From: Escherichia phage ST-T-K
Sequence record: OR992647.1
DNA: 28,657 nt
Strand: one strand, 5' to 3'
The notes beneath the pieces were generated by a model. It did no database searches, was not told where the DNA came from, and saw nothing but the letters and a program-made list of their open reading frames with translations. Below, piece by piece: positions 2,470-10,488 of the stretch (the first letter of the stretch is position 1; each line of letters starts with the position of its first letter). A program made the translations under genes and the position numbers.

Positions 2470-4757
2470 AAGACTTAGAACGCCTATTTCTCGACACCGA
2501 GACGTTTAGCGGGGTGGACCTGAAGAAAGCAGGTGCGTATGCCTACGCGGAACACCCCACCACCGAGATTATGATTTGCACCTACGCCATCGACGAGGGC
2601 CGCGTGCAGACATGGGACGCCACTGAATCCCCAACAATGCCGCGTGAACTGCGCAAGGCGCTCCGCCGCGTATCCCGCAAGAAAGCAAAAATAGTGATGG
2701 CTAACGGCCTCCTGTTTGACCGCCTGGTTATCCGTGAAAAGTGGGGTATCGACCTGCCGGTAAGCCAGATCGAAGATACTATGATTATGGCCTTCCGACA
2801 CGCGCTGCCGGGTAGCCTCGATATGCAATGCCAGGTGCTGGGCGTTGACGCAGAGCACGCGAAGGATAAGGCGGGCAAGGCGCTGATCAAACGGTTCTGT
2901 AAGCCTACCCCTAAGACCTACAAAATCCGCCGCTACACCCGCGACACACACCCTGAAGAATGGGCTAAATTCCTGCGCTATGCCGCGCTGGATATTATCG
3001 CAATGCGTGAAGTCTACTGGCGCATACCGGACTGGGGTAACACGCCGAAGGAAGACGAAATCCTGCTTATTGACCAGTTGATTAACGACCGTGGCTTCTA
3101 TGTGGACGTTGACCTGGCTAACGCCGCGATCAAGGCGGTGCAGGTGCATAAAGAGGAATTGAAGGAAGAAGCCTGGGAACTGTTCGGCGGTAAGCTGACC
3201 GGCAATGACTTCCTGCCAATCCTGCGTGATATTGCCCCGGCGTTCACAATTCACAACGCGCAGAAATCCACGCTGAATGACTTGCTGGAAGATCCAGACT
3301 TCCCCGACGAGGGCAAAGTGCTTATTGAGATGCGCCTCGGTGCGTCATCAACGGCATCGACTAAATACAATCCGCTCGTAAACGGTCTTTCTGCCGATGG
3401 TCGCCGCCGTGGTTGTCTTCAGTATGGTGGGGCAAAGCGCACACTACGCTGGGCTGGTAAAGGCTTTCAACCTCAAAACCTGGCACGTGGCGAGTACAGT
3501 GATGACCACGAAGGGAAGATTAAGCGCCGCGAAGGTGAGAGCGACGTCTCGTTTTGGGTACGGTCGCACATGCTCACCAACGGCATCAACTCCCTGTTAC
3601 GCGGGACCGCGCACTGGGCGTATGACATATCGAAGCTGACCGCCTCGACCGTTCGCGGGTGCATTATCCCGGCTAAGGGCAAGAAGTTTGTCGTAGCGGA
3701 CTACTCCAACGTGGAAGGGCGCGGCCTTGCCTGGATCGCAGGCGAGAAAACCGCATTAATGGTGTTTAAGGCCGGACGCGATATCTATTGTGAAACTGCC
3801 GGTAAGATGTTCGGCCTCGACCCGGACTACATTAAAGCCAACCGCAAAGACTTGCGCCAGATTGGTAAGGCGTGTGAATTGGGGCTGGGCTATGGTGGCG
3901 GCGTTGCTGCGTTCTTGCAATTCGCTAAAAACCTGGGCCTCGACCTGTACGCAATGGCTGACGTCATGAAGGGTACATTCCCGGATCACATTTGGGCGGC
4001 GGCGAAGCGAGGCTATGAGTTTGCCCGCATCAACGAAGCGAAGCGACCGCCGAAGCCGGGCAAGAAAGACGAGCGCCCAACCTACATACTGCCTAAAAAT
4101 GTATGGTTGACCTGTGACGCGATTAAACGCATGTGGCGTGAGTCTCACCCGAAGACCGTAGATTTTTGGTCCGAGCTTGAGCACGCGGTGTTAAACGCAA
4201 TACGCAATCCGGGTAAGGCATACTGGGCTGGCGCGAACGTTCGCCCGGATGGTAAGAAAGCGCTCAAAATTGTTCGCACGAAGGCGAAGCATGACCCAAC
4301 CTTCGACGAGGAGCGCGACGACCCGAACGCGGCGGGCTGGTGGCTGAAGGTTGAGTTGCCGTCCGGGCGAATCATGAGCTACCCCGGCATCGCGTTGTCT
4401 GTCACTACCGAGATTGACGAAGACACCGGCAAGAAGCGCACCAGCACTCGCATAAAATACCAGGGCGAGAATCAGACTACGCGCCAGTGGGGATTCCAGT
4501 ACACCTACGGCGGCAAACTGACGGAGAACATCGTACAGGCGTTGTGCCGCGATATCCTCGCATGGTCCATGCCTGGTGTCGAAGCTGCGGGCTATGAAAT
4601 CGTCCTGTCAGTGCATGATGAATTGATCACCGAAGTGCCAGACACAGACGACTACACGACCGAGGAGCTATGCGCGCTGATGTGCGACCTGCCGATATGG
4701 GCGAACGGTTTCCCACTTGCCGCCGAAGGCGACATTATGTACCGGTACAGGAAGTAA
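2466..4757 (+). CDS. DNA polymerase, family A (Pol I-like) with N-terminal 3'-5' exonuclease domain
   Basis: 763 aa. N-terminal Exo I motif DTETFSG; polymerase motif B RQIGKACELGLGYGGG; motif C LSVHDELITEV. Confidence 0.9.
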   Translation: MKDLERLFLDTETFSGVDLKKAGAYAYAEHPTTEIMICTYAIDEGRVQTWDATESPTMPRELRKALRRVSRKKAKIVMANGLLFDRLVIREKWGIDLPVSQIEDTMIMAFRHALPGSLDMQCQVLGVDAEHAKDKAGKALIKRFCKPTPKTYKIRRYTRDTHPEEWAKFLRYAALDIIAMREVYWRIPDWGNTPKEDEILLIDQLINDRGFYVDVDLANAAIKAVQVHKEELKEEAWELFGGKLTGNDFLPILRDIAPAFTIHNAQKSTLNDLLEDPDFPDEGKVLIEMRLGASSTASTKYNPLVNGLSADGRRRGCLQYGGAKRTLRWAGKGFQPQNLARGEYSDDHEGKIKRREGESDVSFWVRSHMLTNGINSLLRGTAHWAYDISKLTASTVRGCIIPAKGKKFVVADYSNVEGRGLAWIAGEKTALMVFKAGRDIYCETAGKMFGLDPDYIKANRKDLRQIGKACELGLGYGGGVAAFLQFAKNLGLDLYAMADVMKGTFPDHIWAAAKRGYEFARINEAKRPPKPGKKDERPTYILPKNVWLTCDAIKRMWRESHPKTVDFWSELEHAVLNAIRNPGKAYWAGANVRPDGKKALKIVRTKAKHDPTFDEERDDPNAAGWWLKVELPSGRIMSYPGIALSVTTEIDEDTGKKRTSTRIKYQGENQTTRQWGFQYTYGGKLTENIVQALCRDILAWSMPGVEAAGYEIVLSVHDELITEVPDTDDYTTEELCALMCDLPIWANGFPLAAEGDIMYRYRK

Positions 4758-4953: not shown

Positions 4954-5228
4954 CTCCAGAAGGCAAGATACAAAGTCACCTGATGAAGCTGGTTAAAGCC
5001 GTTGGCGGATTCTGCCGTAAGGTGATATGGGAGGGGCGCTCAGGTGCGCCCGACCTGATTATTATCATAAACGGCAGAGTAGTATTCGTCGAAGTGAAGC
5101 GCCCCGGCGGAAAACCGAAGCCGCACCAGGTGCGAGAACATGAGCGAATGGCCCGCCGCGGTGCTGACGTTCGTGTTATAGACACCATAGCCGACTGTGA
5201 TTTATTGGTTGCTGAATTGGTCGCGTAG
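4950..5228 (+). CDS. VRR-NUC domain nuclease (PD-(D/E)XK)
   Basis: 92 aa; motif GAPDLIIIINGRVVFVEVKRPGG carries the PD...(E)VK signature; C-terminal HQVREHE is typical of VRR-NUC. Confidence 0.8.
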   Translation: MTPEGKIQSHLMKLVKAVGGFCRKVIWEGRSGAPDLIIIINGRVVFVEVKRPGGKPKPHQVREHERMARRGADVRVIDTIADCDLLVAELVA

Positions 5229-5472: not shown

Positions 5473-5484
5473 GGAGACATGACG

Positions 5485-5703
5485 ATGAAAGAACATTACC
5501 GACTCACCAAGCTGGGCGAGTGCAAACCAGGTGATCGCGTGTGGTTTATTGCGGGCATGAATCACCCGCTGCCGCTGACAGTGTGCTGGCAGAAGTTTAA
5601 GAGCTTCCGCTCGACCGGTGTGCACATCGGACACGCCACCAACTACGACGCCACAAAGAGGAACTGGAACTGTGAAACCGAAGTCTGGAAAAAGGCGGAA
5701 TAA
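5485..5703 (+). CDS. hypothetical protein (72 aa)
   Basis: ATG at 5485 with GGAGA at 5473-5477 (7-nt spacer); stop TAA at 5701-5703, 4 nt before the helicase start. Confidence 0.5.
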   Translation: MKEHYRLTKLGECKPGDRVWFIAGMNHPLPLTVCWQKFKSFRSTGVHIGHATNYDATKRNWNCETEVWKKAE

Positions 5704-5707
5704 AGAG

Positions 5708-7132
5708 ATGGCAAGATTCCGACGTCGCGAATACCAGAAGTTGATAACCGCGTTTATTCTCAAGCACGAACGTTGCAATATTTGGGCGACAATGGGATCC
5801 GGTAAAACCGGCGCGACTATGTGGGCGCTCAACAAAATGTTCCAGACTGGCATCCTATCCAACCAGGAGGACCGCGTACTGGTGCTGGCCCCGCTGCGCG
5901 TTGCGTCGGGTACGTGGCCCCCGGAACAAGAAAAATGGAGATTCCCCGCCCTGCTGGTGGTAGACGGCACCGGGCCGGAGAAGGACCGCATTGCAGCGCT
6001 TGAAAGCGACGCTAACGTGGTTTGTGTTAACTACGATGTGGTTGAGTGGCTTGTAGAGTATTGCGGCGACGAGTGGCCTTTTACGGTCGTTGTTGCCGAT
6101 GAATCCACTAAGCTGAAAGGCTACCGCAGTAAGCAGGGCAGTAAGCGCGCACGCGCACTGGCGGCGATTGCACATAAGCACGTCAAGCGCTGGATCAACC
6201 TGACCGGCACGCCAGCACCAAACGGACTGAAAGACCTATGGGGTCAGACGTGGTTTGTCGACGGTGGCGAACGCCTCGGCAGTAGCTATCAGGCATTCAC
6301 CGACCGCTGGTTTATTAGCAAGCCTGTTAAGCCAGGCAGCTTCACTATGCAGCACGCCCCGCTCAAGAACTCCGAGAAGGAGATCCAACAACGCCTGTCA
6401 GACGTGTCGCTTACCGTTGATGCGGCTGAATACTTCGGATGTGACAAGCCAATCTATACGCCGGTTGTTGTGGACCTGCCGAAGAAAGCCCGCAGGATTT
6501 ACGACCAGTTCGAGAGCGAGCTATTTGCCGAACTGGAAAGCGGAACAGTGGAAGCGGCGAACGCTGCGGCGAAGACCATCAAGTGCCTCCAGCTTGCTTC
6601 CGGGGCCGTGTATAAGGTGGACGAGGACGGCGAACGGACCGACGAGTGGGAGAAGATTCACGACGCCAAGCTGGACGCGCTGGAAAGTATAGTAGAGGAG
6701 TTGAACGGCGCGCCGTTGCTCGTTGCGTATCAGTACAAGCACGACCTGGCACGTCTGAAGAAGAAATTTCCCCACGGCGTTGCGATGGGTAAGGGTAAGC
6801 AGGGTAATAAGGATATGGAAGCGTGGAACAGGGGCGAGATTCCCATCATGTTCGCACACCCAGCATCAGCGGGTCACGGCCTCAACTTGCAGGACGGAGG
6901 TCATCACCTGGCTATCTTCTCAGATACGTGGAACTATGAGCACTTTGCGCAGATCGTGGAGCGTATCGGGCCGGTCCGCCAGATGCAAGCCGGACACCCT
7001 CGACCGGTATTCGTCTATATTATCCAGGCACGCGGAACACTGGACGAACTGGTGGCCGACCGCCGCGACGGTAAGCGCGATATCCAGGACGATTTGATGG
7101 AATATATGAAAGCTAAGAAGGTGCGCAAGTGA
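5708..7132 (+). CDS. SNF2/DEAD-like superfamily 2 helicase
   Basis: Walker A MGSGKTG; motif II VVVADESTKL; C-terminal helicase region HPASAGHGLNLQDGGHHLAIFSDTWN. Start ATG at 5708 chosen over the track's upstream start, which overlaps the previous gene. Confidence 0.85.
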   Translation: MARFRRREYQKLITAFILKHERCNIWATMGSGKTGATMWALNKMFQTGILSNQEDRVLVLAPLRVASGTWPPEQEKWRFPALLVVDGTGPEKDRIAALESDANVVCVNYDVVEWLVEYCGDEWPFTVVVADESTKLKGYRSKQGSKRARALAAIAHKHVKRWINLTGTPAPNGLKDLWGQTWFVDGGERLGSSYQAFTDRWFISKPVKPGSFTMQHAPLKNSEKEIQQRLSDVSLTVDAAEYFGCDKPIYTPVVVDLPKKARRIYDQFESELFAELESGTVEAANAAAKTIKCLQLASGAVYKVDEDGERTDEWEKIHDAKLDALESIVEELNGAPLLVAYQYKHDLARLKKKFPHGVAMGKGKQGNKDMEAWNRGEIPIMFAHPASAGHGLNLQDGGHHLAIFSDTWNYEHFAQIVERIGPVRQMQAGHPRPVFVYIIQARGTLDELVADRRDGKRDIQDDLMEYMKAKKVRK

Positions 7133-7824
7133 TTATCTGGTCATTATTCGACGGCAGCGGCTTGATGATAGAGCGTGCTGCCGAGATGGGGCATAAGTGC
7201 TACTGTTTCAACTACTCCGAAGCCGATCACGGGTCTTACCTGGACTACCGGATTTATGGGCGCGGTATCCGCTATCGTAATGAGTTTATCGATCTGGACT
7301 TCGTGGACCGAGCTATGAATGGCGATTTCGGCACGCCGGATATTATCTACGCGTTTCCGCCGTGCACGGATCTAGCGGTTAGCGGTGCGCCAGCTTTCCC
7401 GCGCAAGCGTGCGAACGACCCAGCCTTTCAGCTTAAGGCCGTGCGCACCGCGAAGATTGCCGCTTACCTGGGTGACTTCTTTGAAGTGCCATATATGATT
7501 GAAAATCCGCGCAGTGTGCTATCCACCCAGTGGCGCAAGCCCAACCACTCGTTTGATCCGTGGGAGTACGGCGGATATCTGCCGGTGGATGACGTGCATC
7601 CGTTGTTCCCGGAATACATCAACGACCGCGATTCATATCCAAAGCTGACCTGTTTATGGACTGGCAACGGCTTTCGTATGCCAGAGAAAAAGCCGGTATT
7701 CGTTGAAAAAGGGTACTCGAAGCAGTATAGTCGCCTCGGTGGCAAATCTGCCCGCACCAAATTAATCCGGTCGCTCACTCCGCGCGGCTTCGCAATAGCA
7801 GTCAATGAGGAAAATTTAAAATGA
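7129..7824 (+). CDS. C5-cytosine methyltransferase-like protein, minimal (no recognisable target-recognition domain)
   Basis: GTG at 7129 overlaps the helicase stop (GTGA). Motif I-like LFDGSG, motif IV-like FPPCTDL (Pro-Cys), motif VI-like IENP. Only 231 aa. Confidence 0.55.
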   Translation: MIIWSLFDGSGLMIERAAEMGHKCYCFNYSEADHGSYLDYRIYGRGIRYRNEFIDLDFVDRAMNGDFGTPDIIYAFPPCTDLAVSGAPAFPRKRANDPAFQLKAVRTAKIAAYLGDFFEVPYMIENPRSVLSTQWRKPNHSFDPWEYGGYLPVDDVHPLFPEYINDRDSYPKLTCLWTGNGFRMPEKKPVFVEKGYSKQYSRLGGKSARTKLIRSLTPRGFAIAVNEENLK

Positions 7825-8144
7825 ATACTACATTCGAAGCCATCGACTTCTCGGTCGCAATGACTAACCAGTTATTCACCTACGACAGTAAGACCGGCGT
7901 CATCCGTCTGAAGTCCACCGGCTGCAAGATTGGCAACCTCAACACTGCCGATGGCGGCACGCGTATCGAATGCAACGGCAAGACGCTGTCTGGCGCGCGC
8001 GTGGCGTGGATTATTGAGACTGGCAATACAATCCCTCCCGGCTTCGCCGTTGTGTGTCGCCAGCGCACGCCAGGACACTACGGCAACCGCATGAGCAACC
8101 TGTATTTGGTAGACGTAGCGCGCGACCCGAATTTTTATGAATAA
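7821..8144 (+). CDS. hypothetical protein, weak resemblance to a degenerate HNH_3-type domain
   Basis: ATG at 7821 overlaps the upstream stop (ATGA). Segment ARVAWIIETGN ... GHYGNRMSNLYLV loosely resembles HNH_3 domains, but the catalytic His-Asn-His pattern is not intact. Confidence 0.4.
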   Translation: MNTTFEAIDFSVAMTNQLFTYDSKTGVIRLKSTGCKIGNLNTADGGTRIECNGKTLSGARVAWIIETGNTIPPGFAVVCRQRTPGHYGNRMSNLYLVDVARDPNFYE

Positions 8145-8180: not shown

Positions 8181-8206
8181 GGGTGTCCGGTTGGACGCCC
8201 TTTTTA
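8181..8206 (+). terminator. terminator-like hairpin with T-tract immediately upstream of an RBS
   Basis: Stem GGGTGTCC (8181-8188) / GGACGCCC (8193-8200) with one G-U pair, loop GGTT, then TTTTTAAT. Confidence 0.55.
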
Positions 8207-8224
8207 ATACCTGGAGACATTACG

Positions 8225-8689
8225 ATGAAAATTTTACAAGAAGAGAAAAATTACTGGGCTGCGCAATGCCTCGAAGCCCGCGAACAGGCCGAACGCGCGA
8301 ACGCGCTGGCGGATACATACCTGGCGAGCTACGAAGGAGAGGAGAAGGTGCGCAAGGAGCTAGAGGAGCGCTTCGAACTACTTTTCGAACTGATGGGGAT
8401 TATGCAGCGCACCGGATACACAACCAGCGTTGCGCTAAACCGCGTAACTGCCGACGCCCTGCGTGAGCACTGCAAACGTGCCGAGGAGTACGTGCGTCCT
8501 ATGGGCCGCCGGACTTCGATCCCCCGTAAAGACCTGGTGCTGATAGCGTGGCGCAATACAATAAACGGCAATTATTACTCCGATAATCGCCCGCTTAGCG
8601 CCGAGGAAGCAAAGCGCGTGCAACGCGTCATCGGTAAAGGCGATAAGGTTCCACTATACGCGTTAGACACCGACCATGACGGAGAATGA
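8225..8689 (+). CDS. hypothetical protein (154 aa)
   Basis: ATG at 8225 with GGAGA at 8213-8217 (7-nt spacer); the leader is near-identical to that of the 5485 gene; 3' end overlaps the Dam start by 14 nt. Confidence 0.55.
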   Translation: MKILQEEKNYWAAQCLEAREQAERANALADTYLASYEGEEKVRKELEERFELLFELMGIMQRTGYTTSVALNRVTADALREHCKRAEEYVRPMGRRTSIPRKDLVLIAWRNTINGNYYSDNRPLSAEEAKRVQRVIGKGDKVPLYALDTDHDGE

Positions 8690-9161
8690 GCAGAAGGATA
8701 GCTGGCGCACGCCGCCAGCTTTATTTAAACCGCTGCGCCGCAAGTACCGATTCCGTTACGATATGGCGGCAAGCGACACCAATCACCTGCTACCGCGCTA
8801 CTTCACGGCAGAGCATAGCGCGCTTGATGCGGACTGGTCAGAGTTGAAAGGGTGGAAGTGGTGCAATCCGCCGTACTCCGATCCGCTGCCGTGGGTCGAG
8901 TGCGCTGCGCACGGACGCCGTACTGTCATGCTACTGAATCAGGACACGTCAACGAAGTGGGCGAAGCTGGCCCGGAAGACTGCCAATATGATAATTCTTC
9001 TGGACTGGCGTGTGCGATTCACCCATGCTGTGACCGGCGAAGTTGGGCCGAGCAATAACAAGTGCCAGCAATTGATAATATTTGATGAAGCGCCGCCCAT
9101 CGGCAGCGCACAAATTGAAATAATGAGCGAGAGAGAACTACATGAATATCTTAATCGTTGA
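8676..9161 (+). CDS. DNA N6-adenine methyltransferase, phage Dam type
   Basis: 161 aa with catalytic motif WCNPPYSD (NPPY); size and layout match the small phage Dam family. Confidence 0.8.
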   Translation: MTENEQKDSWRTPPALFKPLRRKYRFRYDMAASDTNHLLPRYFTAEHSALDADWSELKGWKWCNPPYSDPLPWVECAAHGRRTVMLLNQDTSTKWAKLARKTANMIILLDWRVRFTHAVTGEVGPSNNKCQQLIIFDEAPPIGSAQIEIMSERELHEYLNR

Positions 9162-9366
9162 CCGCGACCCCGCGGTAGTAGACCAAATGCAAAGGGACTA
9201 TAACATTGACCCGCGCCGCGACCGTGTGGTGCGCGTATCCCGACCAGAATCCATAATGAGCCTGGACCTTACCGGTTGGCTTGTCATAACCAAGCGTTGC
9301 CATTTCGTATGCAACTCCGTTACTGCGCGAAGCGCCCGTCACACCCTTATTGAGAGCTTAAAATGA
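9142..9366 (+). CDS. hypothetical protein (74 aa), coupled between Dam and the HAD phosphatase
   Basis: ATG at 9142 with GAGAGA upstream; overlaps the Dam 3' end by 20 nt and ends in an ATGA overlap with the next gene at 9363. Confidence 0.4.
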   Translation: MNILIVDRDPAVVDQMQRDYNIDPRRDRVVRVSRPESIMSLDLTGWLVITKRCHFVCNSVTARSARHTLIESLK

Positions 9367-9894: not shown

Positions 9895-10488
9895 ATGAAA
9901 GCATTTGAATACTGCAAGAACGCCGCCACCACTATGGAACAGCGCGGGAAAGAAAACGGCTATGACAACGCGAAAGAAGAACGCAGCGCTAAACAGATCG
10001 CTGCCGTGTTTAACGCGCTTACCGGTCGCGACCTGACCGAGCAAGAAGCCTGGACCTTCCTGATCTGCCTGAAGCTGGTGCGCCAGCACCGTAAGCACCA
10101 GGAAGACAATATTGTTGATCTGGTTGCGTATTCCGCCTTGCTGGGCGAGTCTTACATGACCGTGCATGACGAGATTCAGGTCGATACAACGGCAGCGCAA
10201 TTCGACAGCCTCAAGGGTTGGCCTATCAAGACCAGCGGCGCGTTCAAGCCTTCGGACCTGTCCGTGCGCCTTGACGGCGAGATTAATGCGTATAACAGCG
10301 CAATGCGCGTTGCCGGGGATACGGTGGCCTCGTTCGGAAAGACTGTTAAAGCTGCCAATTTCGGTGTGGCAGATCAAGAAGTACAGCCTATGGTAGTGCT
10401 CACTGGCGAGGATGGGTCCAAAATCCTCATGACGCCGGAAGACTTCCGCAACATGGAAAAAACACTGGTGACTAGCGCACTTAAATAA
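9895..10488 (+). CDS. hypothetical protein (197 aa)
   Basis: ATG at 9895 preceded by AAAGGAAAAA; no motif recognised with confidence. Confidence 0.6.
   Translation: MKAFEYCKNAATTMEQRGKENGYDNAKEERSAKQIAAVFNALTGRDLTEQEAWTFLICLKLVRQHRKHQEDNIVDLVAYSALLGESYMTVHDEIQVDTTAAQFDSLKGWPIKTSGAFKPSDLSVRLDGEINAYNSAMRVAGDTVASFGKTVKAANFGVADQEVQPMVVLTGEDGSKILMTPEDFRNMEKTLVTSALK

Follow-up and report, generated by a model that had tools for sequence, protein, structure and literature searches.

The window analysed here is a 28,657-nucleotide stretch of Escherichia phage ST-T-K (OR992647.1), and the gene in question is an open reading frame (ORF) at 7129–7824 on the plus strand, the strand to which all window coordinates below refer. 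It runs from a GTG start to a TGA stop and encodes 231 amino acids, as seen in the ORF list and by direct reading of the sequence. On the strength of this frame, its match to PHROG 757, its predicted fold and 53% identity to the Dcm-like protein of phage Bas06, it is described as the coding sequence of a compact C5-cytosine methyltransferase. Our reading, to which we attach a probability of roughly 0.8, is that the product is an active orphan DNA cytosine-C5 methyltransferase, dependent on S-adenosylmethionine (SAM) and expressed by a lytic Dhillonvirus-like coliphage together with its replication genes.

Gene, junctions and motif anatomy

The frame and the three motifs picked out in the first-pass annotation, LFDGSG, FPPCTDL and IENP, are all present in the 231 residues, and with the family match they confirm the feature as real, far beyond chance. 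The junction with the upstream helicase gene spans 7115–7132 and comprises a Shine-Dalgarno-like AAGAAGG at 7115–7121, a 7-nucleotide spacer and the GTG at 7129–7131, which overlaps the TGA of the helicase at 7130–7132, so that start and stop share bases as GTGA. At the other end, the methyltransferase stop overlaps the ATG (7821) of the next ORF as ATGA. Given these overlaps and the Shine-Dalgarno-like element, translational coupling is plausible on both sides; the first-pass annotation had taken coupling to the helicase as given, and it is the junction itself that is directly visible.

Conservation was read from 70 sequences, including two clades that are 31% identical to each other. The residues P78, C79, S85, G86, K93, E125, N126, P127, P144, D168, Y170, K172, T174 and W177 are invariant, as are P185, R214, S215, P218, G220 and A224 in the C-terminal part. 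An AlphaFold2 model built from 70 sequences (mean predicted local distance difference test, pLDDT, 90.8; predicted template modelling score 0.89; no segment below 50) lays out a strand at 2–6, a helix, strands at 23–28 and 47–51, a helix, a strand at 72–75 and two helices, followed by strands at 122–127, 140–142 and 174–179 and then three short helices.

The motifs can be placed on this framework. Motif I, LFDGSG (residues 6–11, 7144–7161), would form the SAM-binding glycine loop after strand 1, in register with motif I of M.HaeIII; of F7-D-G9-S-G11, only G11 is conserved family-wide (at least 90%), and the actinophage clade has CDLTG. Motif IV, FPPCTDL (residues 76–82, 7354–7374), follows strand 4 and holds the predicted catalytic nucleophile, Cys79, equivalent to C82 of the Dcm protein of phage K42; beside the invariant P78 and C79, P77 and T80 are at least 90% conserved. 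Motif VI, IENP (residues 124–127, 7498–7509), lies on the strand 122–127, carries the ENV-type Glu125 (E128 of K42 Dcm) and is the ENP variant of ENV. A loop between motifs VII and VIII (residues 151–169, 7579–7635) has no regular secondary structure and high pLDDT; about 14 of its residues are an insertion found only in the enterobacterial-phage clade, where the actinophage clade has a gap. The motif VIII-like strand, YPKLTCLWTG (residues 170–179, 7636–7665), includes four of the invariant residues, of which K172, matching K175 of K42 Dcm, may stand in for the motif VIII arginine. A merged motif IX/X-like segment, RSLTPRGFAIAV (residues 214–225, 7768–7803), opens the last helix; it begins with R214-S-L-T-P-R-G-F, near the model helices 208–214 and 219–229.

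Between motif VIII and motif IX no discrete target-recognition domain (TRD) is found in the protein. In the model only about 34 residues, mostly loop, lead from the motif VIII strand to motif IX/X (G179 to R214). Relatives carry insertions of 30–45 amino acids at exactly this position, which therefore is the variable TRD slot of the family, almost empty here. This vestigial slot occupies residues 183–203 (7675–7737), reads RMPEKKPVFVEKGYSKQYSRL, belongs to a "G[YFW]SxQ" subtype and is modelled with lower pLDDT (76–82). The missing TRD noticed in the first-pass annotation is thus borne out, and the short form is found family-wide, alongside the insertion-bearing relatives.

Family, fold and a characterised ortholog

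PHROG 757, "DNA methyltransferase", matches residues 1–229 of the protein with E=3e-81. Homologs occur in 1,517 phage records, of which about 145 are at 95–99% identity and include SECphi18, HK578-like phages and the Dhillonviruses of the BASEL collection. When the family profile was searched against 1.84 billion representatives (50% identity clusters), 2,764 clusters were found at E≤0.001, and the best 150 of them are mostly 200–260 amino acids long; small size is therefore a trait of the family and not a truncation. The novelty implied by the first-pass annotation does not hold, as in many Dhillonvirus genomes on deposit the gene already carries a (Dcm-like) C5 cytosine methyltransferase label. 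The family is already known, widespread and annotated, and it has an experimentally characterised member.

Some members are built into larger proteins. One of 563 amino acids (P0273) is joined to a Dam DNA methyltransferase of the D12 class (PF02086, 2.5e-48), another (P0375) has a C-terminal HNH_2 nuclease domain, and a third (P0383) has a Hint/LAGLIDADG intein inserted beside the PPC motif. In BFVD, the fold is embedded in phage proteins of 1,397 and 1,126 amino acids (A0A6J5SE15 and A0A6J5NPY6), the larger of which is named "Helicase/UvrB, N-terminal". As a side observation, Klebsiella phage 13, a Webervirus, encodes a family member of about 42% identity at positions 3489–4181 of its record. 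A 2013 study reported Webervirus KP36 to be without a cytosine methyltransferase and ascribed its EcoRII-resistant DNA to the host Dcm (PMC3620542). In the older EcoRII-resistance digests of Klebsiella phages, host Dcm is a confounding factor.

The fold gives the second line of support. In a Foldseek search of the Protein Data Bank (PDB), all 50 matches at E≤0.001 are catalytic domains of DNMT3A, DNMT3B or DNMT3C, except the prophage methyltransferase 3g7u. The model thus supports a class I Rossmann SAM-methyltransferase fold, with DNA C5-cytosine methyltransferases as its closest solved relatives; such a class I fold is what the first-pass annotation had predicted. Sequence identity to DNMT3A and DNMT3B is 12–18%, and those enzymes differ in having domains of about 285 amino acids, a TRD loop of about 50 residues and DNMT3L-assisted tetramers acting on CpG. 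With the canonical C5-methyltransferases of PF00145 (M.HhaI, M.HaeIII, E. coli Dcm/M.EcoRII) the protein shares the order and chemistry of motifs I, IV and VI and the Rossmann core. It is, however, about 100–240 residues shorter (E. coli Dcm has 472 amino acids), with no TRD domain and no QxRxR, and its motifs IX and X are merged.

The third line of support comes from a related phage enzyme. Over its full length, the window protein shows 53% identity to gp55 of KarlJaspers, Bas06 (E 9e-84). Phage K42, a member of the Drexlerviridae with 95.4% identity to Bas06, was studied by Wang et al. (bioRxiv 10.1101/2023.08.16.553469; Cell Rep 2024;43:114857). Its dcm gene, of 711 bp, has the same length as the gene for Bas06 gp55, which has C82, E128, K175 and K176 exactly at the positions mutated in K42 Dcm; the window equivalents are C79, E125, K172 and L173. 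Phages that escaped the retron Ec86 carried lesions in dcm, and expression of K42 Dcm was toxic only in the presence of Ec86 (bioRxiv 10.1101/2023.08.16.553469). By LC-MS (liquid chromatography coupled to mass spectrometry), 5-methylcytosine (5mC) was high on the multicopy single-stranded DNA (msDNA) of the retron with wild-type K42 Dcm, and not with the quadruple mutant; alteration of CCTGG in the msDNA stem-loop abolished defence, and of 35 phages sensitive to Ec86, drawn from three families, 34 encoded Dcm (bioRxiv 10.1101/2023.08.16.553469). For this ortholog, and for it only, the enzyme is experimentally tied to the formation of 5mC in DNA and to retron triggering.

The two proteins have much in common: at 231 and 236 amino acids they share architecture, PHROG and the catalytic residues C79/C82, E125/E128 and K172/K175, and both are encoded by orphan genes of lytic coliphages. 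They differ in that K42 and Bas06 represent Hanrivervirus and the window a Dhillonvirus, in the unrelated slot, in the replacement of K176 by Leu173, and in their neighbouring genes. Fold, invariant Pro-Cys and Glu-Asn motifs and an ortholog, at 53% identity, that raises 5mC in vivo together uphold the C5-methyltransferase reading of the first-pass annotation.

The mechanism would follow the course expected of such enzymes. The target cytosine would be flipped out of the DNA, Cys79 (motif IV, PPC) would attack C6 and Glu125 (motif VI, ENP) would protonate N3. SAM, whose predicted binding site is made up of the FDGSG loop and the segments E31/D33-H34 and I54-D55, would give its methyl group to C5, and beta-elimination would release 5-methylcytosine. 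The enzyme appears to be essentially a bare catalytic domain, and because only some 20 non-conserved residues stand at the usual TRD site, DNA would have to be read by short loops, for which the candidates are the catalytic loop 80–100, the WRKP loop 135–138, the insert 151–169 and the slot 183–203. Dimerisation in the manner of DNMT3 is possible. The most likely role would be self-methylation of replicating phage DNA, which would blunt cytosine-sensitive restriction. The cost may be detection by the host, as when methylation of the msDNA stem-loop by the K42 ortholog triggers retron Ec86/Eco1. The mechanism is proposed from the conserved motifs and the characterised ortholog; that the window protein is active, that it counters restriction and what sequence it methylates are likewise matters of inference.

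Catalytic activity and target specificity

Several observations weigh against this interpretation. The window protein has no match in Pfam even at E≤10, PF00145 included, and none in NCBIfam, PADLOC or the PDB sequences; an alignment by hhalign of the family profile with E. coli K-12 Dcm gave a probability of 0.2, an E of 0.26 and a spurious 29 columns. Canonical motif VIII QxRxR is absent, and the structural similarity found by Foldseek is moderate (best E about 2e-6, TM 0.45–0.57). Identity to Bas06 gp55 in the TRD slot is 4% (1 of 23 aligned positions). The literature search found no published experiment on the window protein or any Dhillonvirus ortholog, and nothing specific on methyltransferase phenotypes of Dhillonvirus or SECphi18, nor Eco1 tests on Dhillonviruses. 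In the BASEL study, methyltransferase genes of Drexlerviridae showed no simple correlation with restriction resistance, and it is for this reason that the anti-restriction benefit is worded conditionally here. As for the K42 enzyme, the stem-loop mutants could equally disturb effector binding, which weakens its CCWGG assignment, and MG1655 is dcm+, yet 5mC on control msDNA was low (bioRxiv 10.1101/2023.08.16.553469).

The PF00145 search proposed in the first-pass annotation leaves the window protein without a match and finds only some of its relatives: 22 of 59 aligned family members match at E≤1, and two that are 61–62% identical to the window protein (P0023 and P0026) exceed the gathering score, with 28.5 and 24.7 bits against 22. 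Their match is confined to profile positions 4–94, that is, to motifs I–IV. The family profile run against PDB sequences met M.HaeIII with motifs I and IV in register, at a level that is not significant. Taken with the null result for Dcm, this indicates a real link in sequence with the canonical C5-methyltransferases, though one limited to the N-terminal half. Since no relationship to E. coli Dcm is detected, "Dcm-like" is a functional nickname and not a phylogenetic statement.

The failure of all curated family models, together with the absence of a canonical motif VIII and of a TRD, is what would be expected of a catalytically dead relic, or of a protein that keeps the fold for DNA binding or regulation. 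We consider this extremely improbable, since the motifs for catalysis and the cofactor show no variation in thousands of relatives and the ortholog is active while its catalytic mutant is not. Furthermore, the protein is 97–99% identical among Dhillonviruses, where the region around the gene reaches 90–94% at the nucleotide level, a difference that speaks for purifying selection.

Two further alternatives concern the substrate and the group transferred. An RNA methyltransferase, of the Dnmt2-like tRNA kind, or an enzyme modifying nucleotides is hardly credible. The first-pass annotation had left room for modification of another base or of nucleotides, and this is disfavoured by the 5mC product of the ortholog, by the lack of accessory modification genes in the window and by the relative fused to Dam, a fusion that also speaks for a DNA substrate. 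Transfer of another group, such as carboxymethyl from carboxy-SAM (Cx-SAM), would yield 5-carboxymethylcytosine or a mixture. The model for this is SpCmoX, a phage DNA cytosine C5-carboxymethyltransferase with a chain of 333 amino acids (PDB 8yf3; PMC12783734), whose gene lies close to cmoA and a ligase gene and which accepts only Cx-SAM and targets GC (PMC12783734). CmoX homologs are defined by SPPC and R350; an Arg in place of the Asn of motif X is among the marks of the group. The window protein has FPPC, its R219 gives way to Met or Thr in the actinophage clade, and neither cmoA nor an amide-ligase gene is found among its annotated and examined neighbours. DNMT3A, moreover, has an Arg at the position equivalent to R219 and yet uses SAM. 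With 5mC identified by LC-MS as the product of the K42 ortholog, carboxymethyl transfer is very unlikely, and CmoX identity was set aside.

The more serious question is which sequence an active C5-cytosine DNA methyltransferase of this kind would methylate. The target of the window enzyme is possibly CCWGG-like. For K42, CCWGG was proposed by analogy with the host Dcm and from the msDNA CCTGG mutants (bioRxiv 10.1101/2023.08.16.553469), so that the assignment is indirect even there, and the literature search found no direct mapping of a target sequence for any family member. The first-pass annotation had suggested that the enzyme could be a short-motif or non-specific methylase; the work on the ortholog speaks, if indirectly, for a site of CCWGG type. 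The window has 84 CCWGG sites (observed/expected 0.86), a count that neither supports nor excludes CCWGG as the target; for other palindromes containing C, counted in the window and in one relative, the observed/expected values are likewise uninformative on specificity.

The divergence of the slot bears directly on this point. Compared with Bas06 gp55, identity is 51% over the core (1–150), 58% over residues 151–169, 85% over the motif VIII region (170–182) and 79% over the C-terminus (204–231), so that the slot with its single identical position is flanked by segments conserved at 79–85%. In a 59-sequence alignment, three discrete slot types are seen: G[YFW]SxQ, the window type, in about 32 sequences (two PGWSDQ sequences being counted with it), DNPGW, the K42/Bas06 type, in 5, and PDNRIH, the actinophage type, in 22. 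Variable regions at the TRD site, as in TRD swapping, are the usual specificity-determining signature in C5-methyltransferases. Should the slot take part in reading the sequence, like the TRDs of canonical enzymes, specificity may differ between slot types, and with 4% identity to the K42 type the proposed CCWGG specificity is not simply transferable.

An active enzyme whose target is not CCWGG, and is different, shorter or relaxed in comparison with that of the DNPGW type, is thus a possible though not the favoured account. It agrees with the slot types, with the relatives' 30–45-residue insertions at this position and with the closest solved folds, the DNMT3 enzymes, which read only CpG. On the other side, CCWGG is abundant in the window, so that protection there would be useful. 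A very relaxed specificity is disfavoured, as wild-type MG1655, the host from which many Dhillonviruses were obtained, carries McrBC, and dense RmC methylation would be restricted there. The window-type enzyme might also read DNA unlike any characterised C5-methyltransferase, through short loops, perhaps as a DNMT3-like dimer, with a non-CCWGG target set by slot 183–203; we regard this, too, as possible though not favoured.

Genomic surroundings and biological meaning

The window belongs to a Dhillonvirus-like coliphage, and the region has 90–94% nucleotide identity to many Dhillonvirus (HK578-like) siphophages of E. coli. The methyltransferase gene lies in the replication module, where a family A DNA polymerase, a VRR-NUC nuclease, small ORFs and an SNF2-type helicase precede it and an HNH-like ORF, an ORF matching a PHROG labelled "DNA ligase", a Dam-like N6-adenine methyltransferase, a 74-residue ORF and a HAD phosphatase-like ORF follow. 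No restriction endonuclease partner is apparent among these neighbours, and the gene is therefore an orphan methyltransferase gene in a lytic phage.

The upstream SNF2-family helicase (5618–7132; PF00176, 5.7e-11) is listed from a GTG at 5618 as a protein of 504 amino acids, its first 90 nucleotides overlapping a 74-residue ORF at 5479–5703. The helicase gene of relatives is annotated at 1,425 bp (PaulFeyerabend gp37), which implies a start at the ATG at 5708 (MARFRRREYQ…). A conserved functional pair of methyltransferase and helicase was considered and rejected, as their adjacency is inconsistent across relatives. In phage Jersey, too, a methyltransferase gene and a helicase gene overlap; in Bas06 and Webervirus small genes stand between the two, the Bas06 helicase is not homologous to that of the window, and Phi1 has no helicase near the methyltransferase. 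The adjacency is read as shared placement in the replication module and not as an obligate pair.

Downstream, the HNH-endonuclease-like ORF of 107 amino acids (7821–8144; phrog_99, 3.7e-15) has no Pfam match, and the usual HNH histidine and asparagine positions look degenerate by eye (…VVCRQRTPGHYGNRMSNL…). In Jersey an HNH gene is likewise found downstream of the methyltransferase, two genes away. The 168-residue ORF at 8183–8689 matches PHROG 10530, "DNA ligase" (3.6e-91), and no Pfam domain; as it is far below the size of a canonical ligase, the label is doubtful enough to deserve checking. A 197-residue ORF at 9895–10488 matches DUF6378 (4e-9) and PHROGs labelled "phosphofructokinase", a label that is probably misleading.

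Other genes of the window touch on modification and defence. A second, unrelated methyltransferase, the Dam-like N6-adenine enzyme at 8676–9161 (PF05869, 2.4e-35), is classed by PADLOC as an orphan methyltransferase (oMTase). An 81-residue Cys-rich ORF at 5197–5442 matches a "Lar-like restriction alleviation protein" (1.8e-17) and also endonuclease VII/HNH PHROGs; an extra anti-restriction or nuclease function is possible, and the gene call is uncertain because it overlaps other small ORFs. The 74-residue ORF at 9142–9366 (phrog_10685, 6e-42) has the Dam-like methyltransferase on one side and the HAD phosphatase-like gene on the other. Ksap1 of Dhillonvirus SECphi18 is the protein sensed by Klebsiella Avs2 (PMC11564622). 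Length and position of the 74-residue ORF agree with the description of Ksap1, so the phage may also carry this type of defence trigger, here for Avs2. As for the sequence composition, GAATTC, CTGCAG, CCCGGG and GAGCTC do not occur in the window (1–28657; 0.7–5.7 expected for each) and CTAG stands at 0.17 of expectation; such palindrome depletion is a typical restriction-avoidance signature, side by side here with two methyltransferases.

Orphan methyltransferases shape the host range of phages: they blunt restriction, yet may give the phage away to sensors, retron Ec86/Eco1 among them. With a second, Dam-like enzyme in the window, the DNA of this phage is likely to contain both N6-methyladenine (6mA) and 5mC. 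Retrons of the Ec86 type, and restriction that depends on 5mC, could plausibly act against the phage. The family itself is invisible to Pfam, NCBIfam and PADLOC, and because curated models miss it, the annotations of proteins that are 95–99% identical vary between "hypothetical protein" at one end and "Dcm-like C5 cytosine methyltransferase" at the other. This last label should not be taken as proof of CCWGG specificity. The divergence of the slot between the window and K42 types is the new point of the present analysis, and the residual interest lies in how an enzyme of about 230 amino acids without a TRD picks its target and in whether the slot types differ in specificity. If the slot does set the target, this large family, with at least three slot types and its forms with insertions, would amount to a minimal scaffold, provided by nature, on which the specificity of cytosine methylation can be swapped; phages that differ in slot type would then be open to different defences that sense modification.

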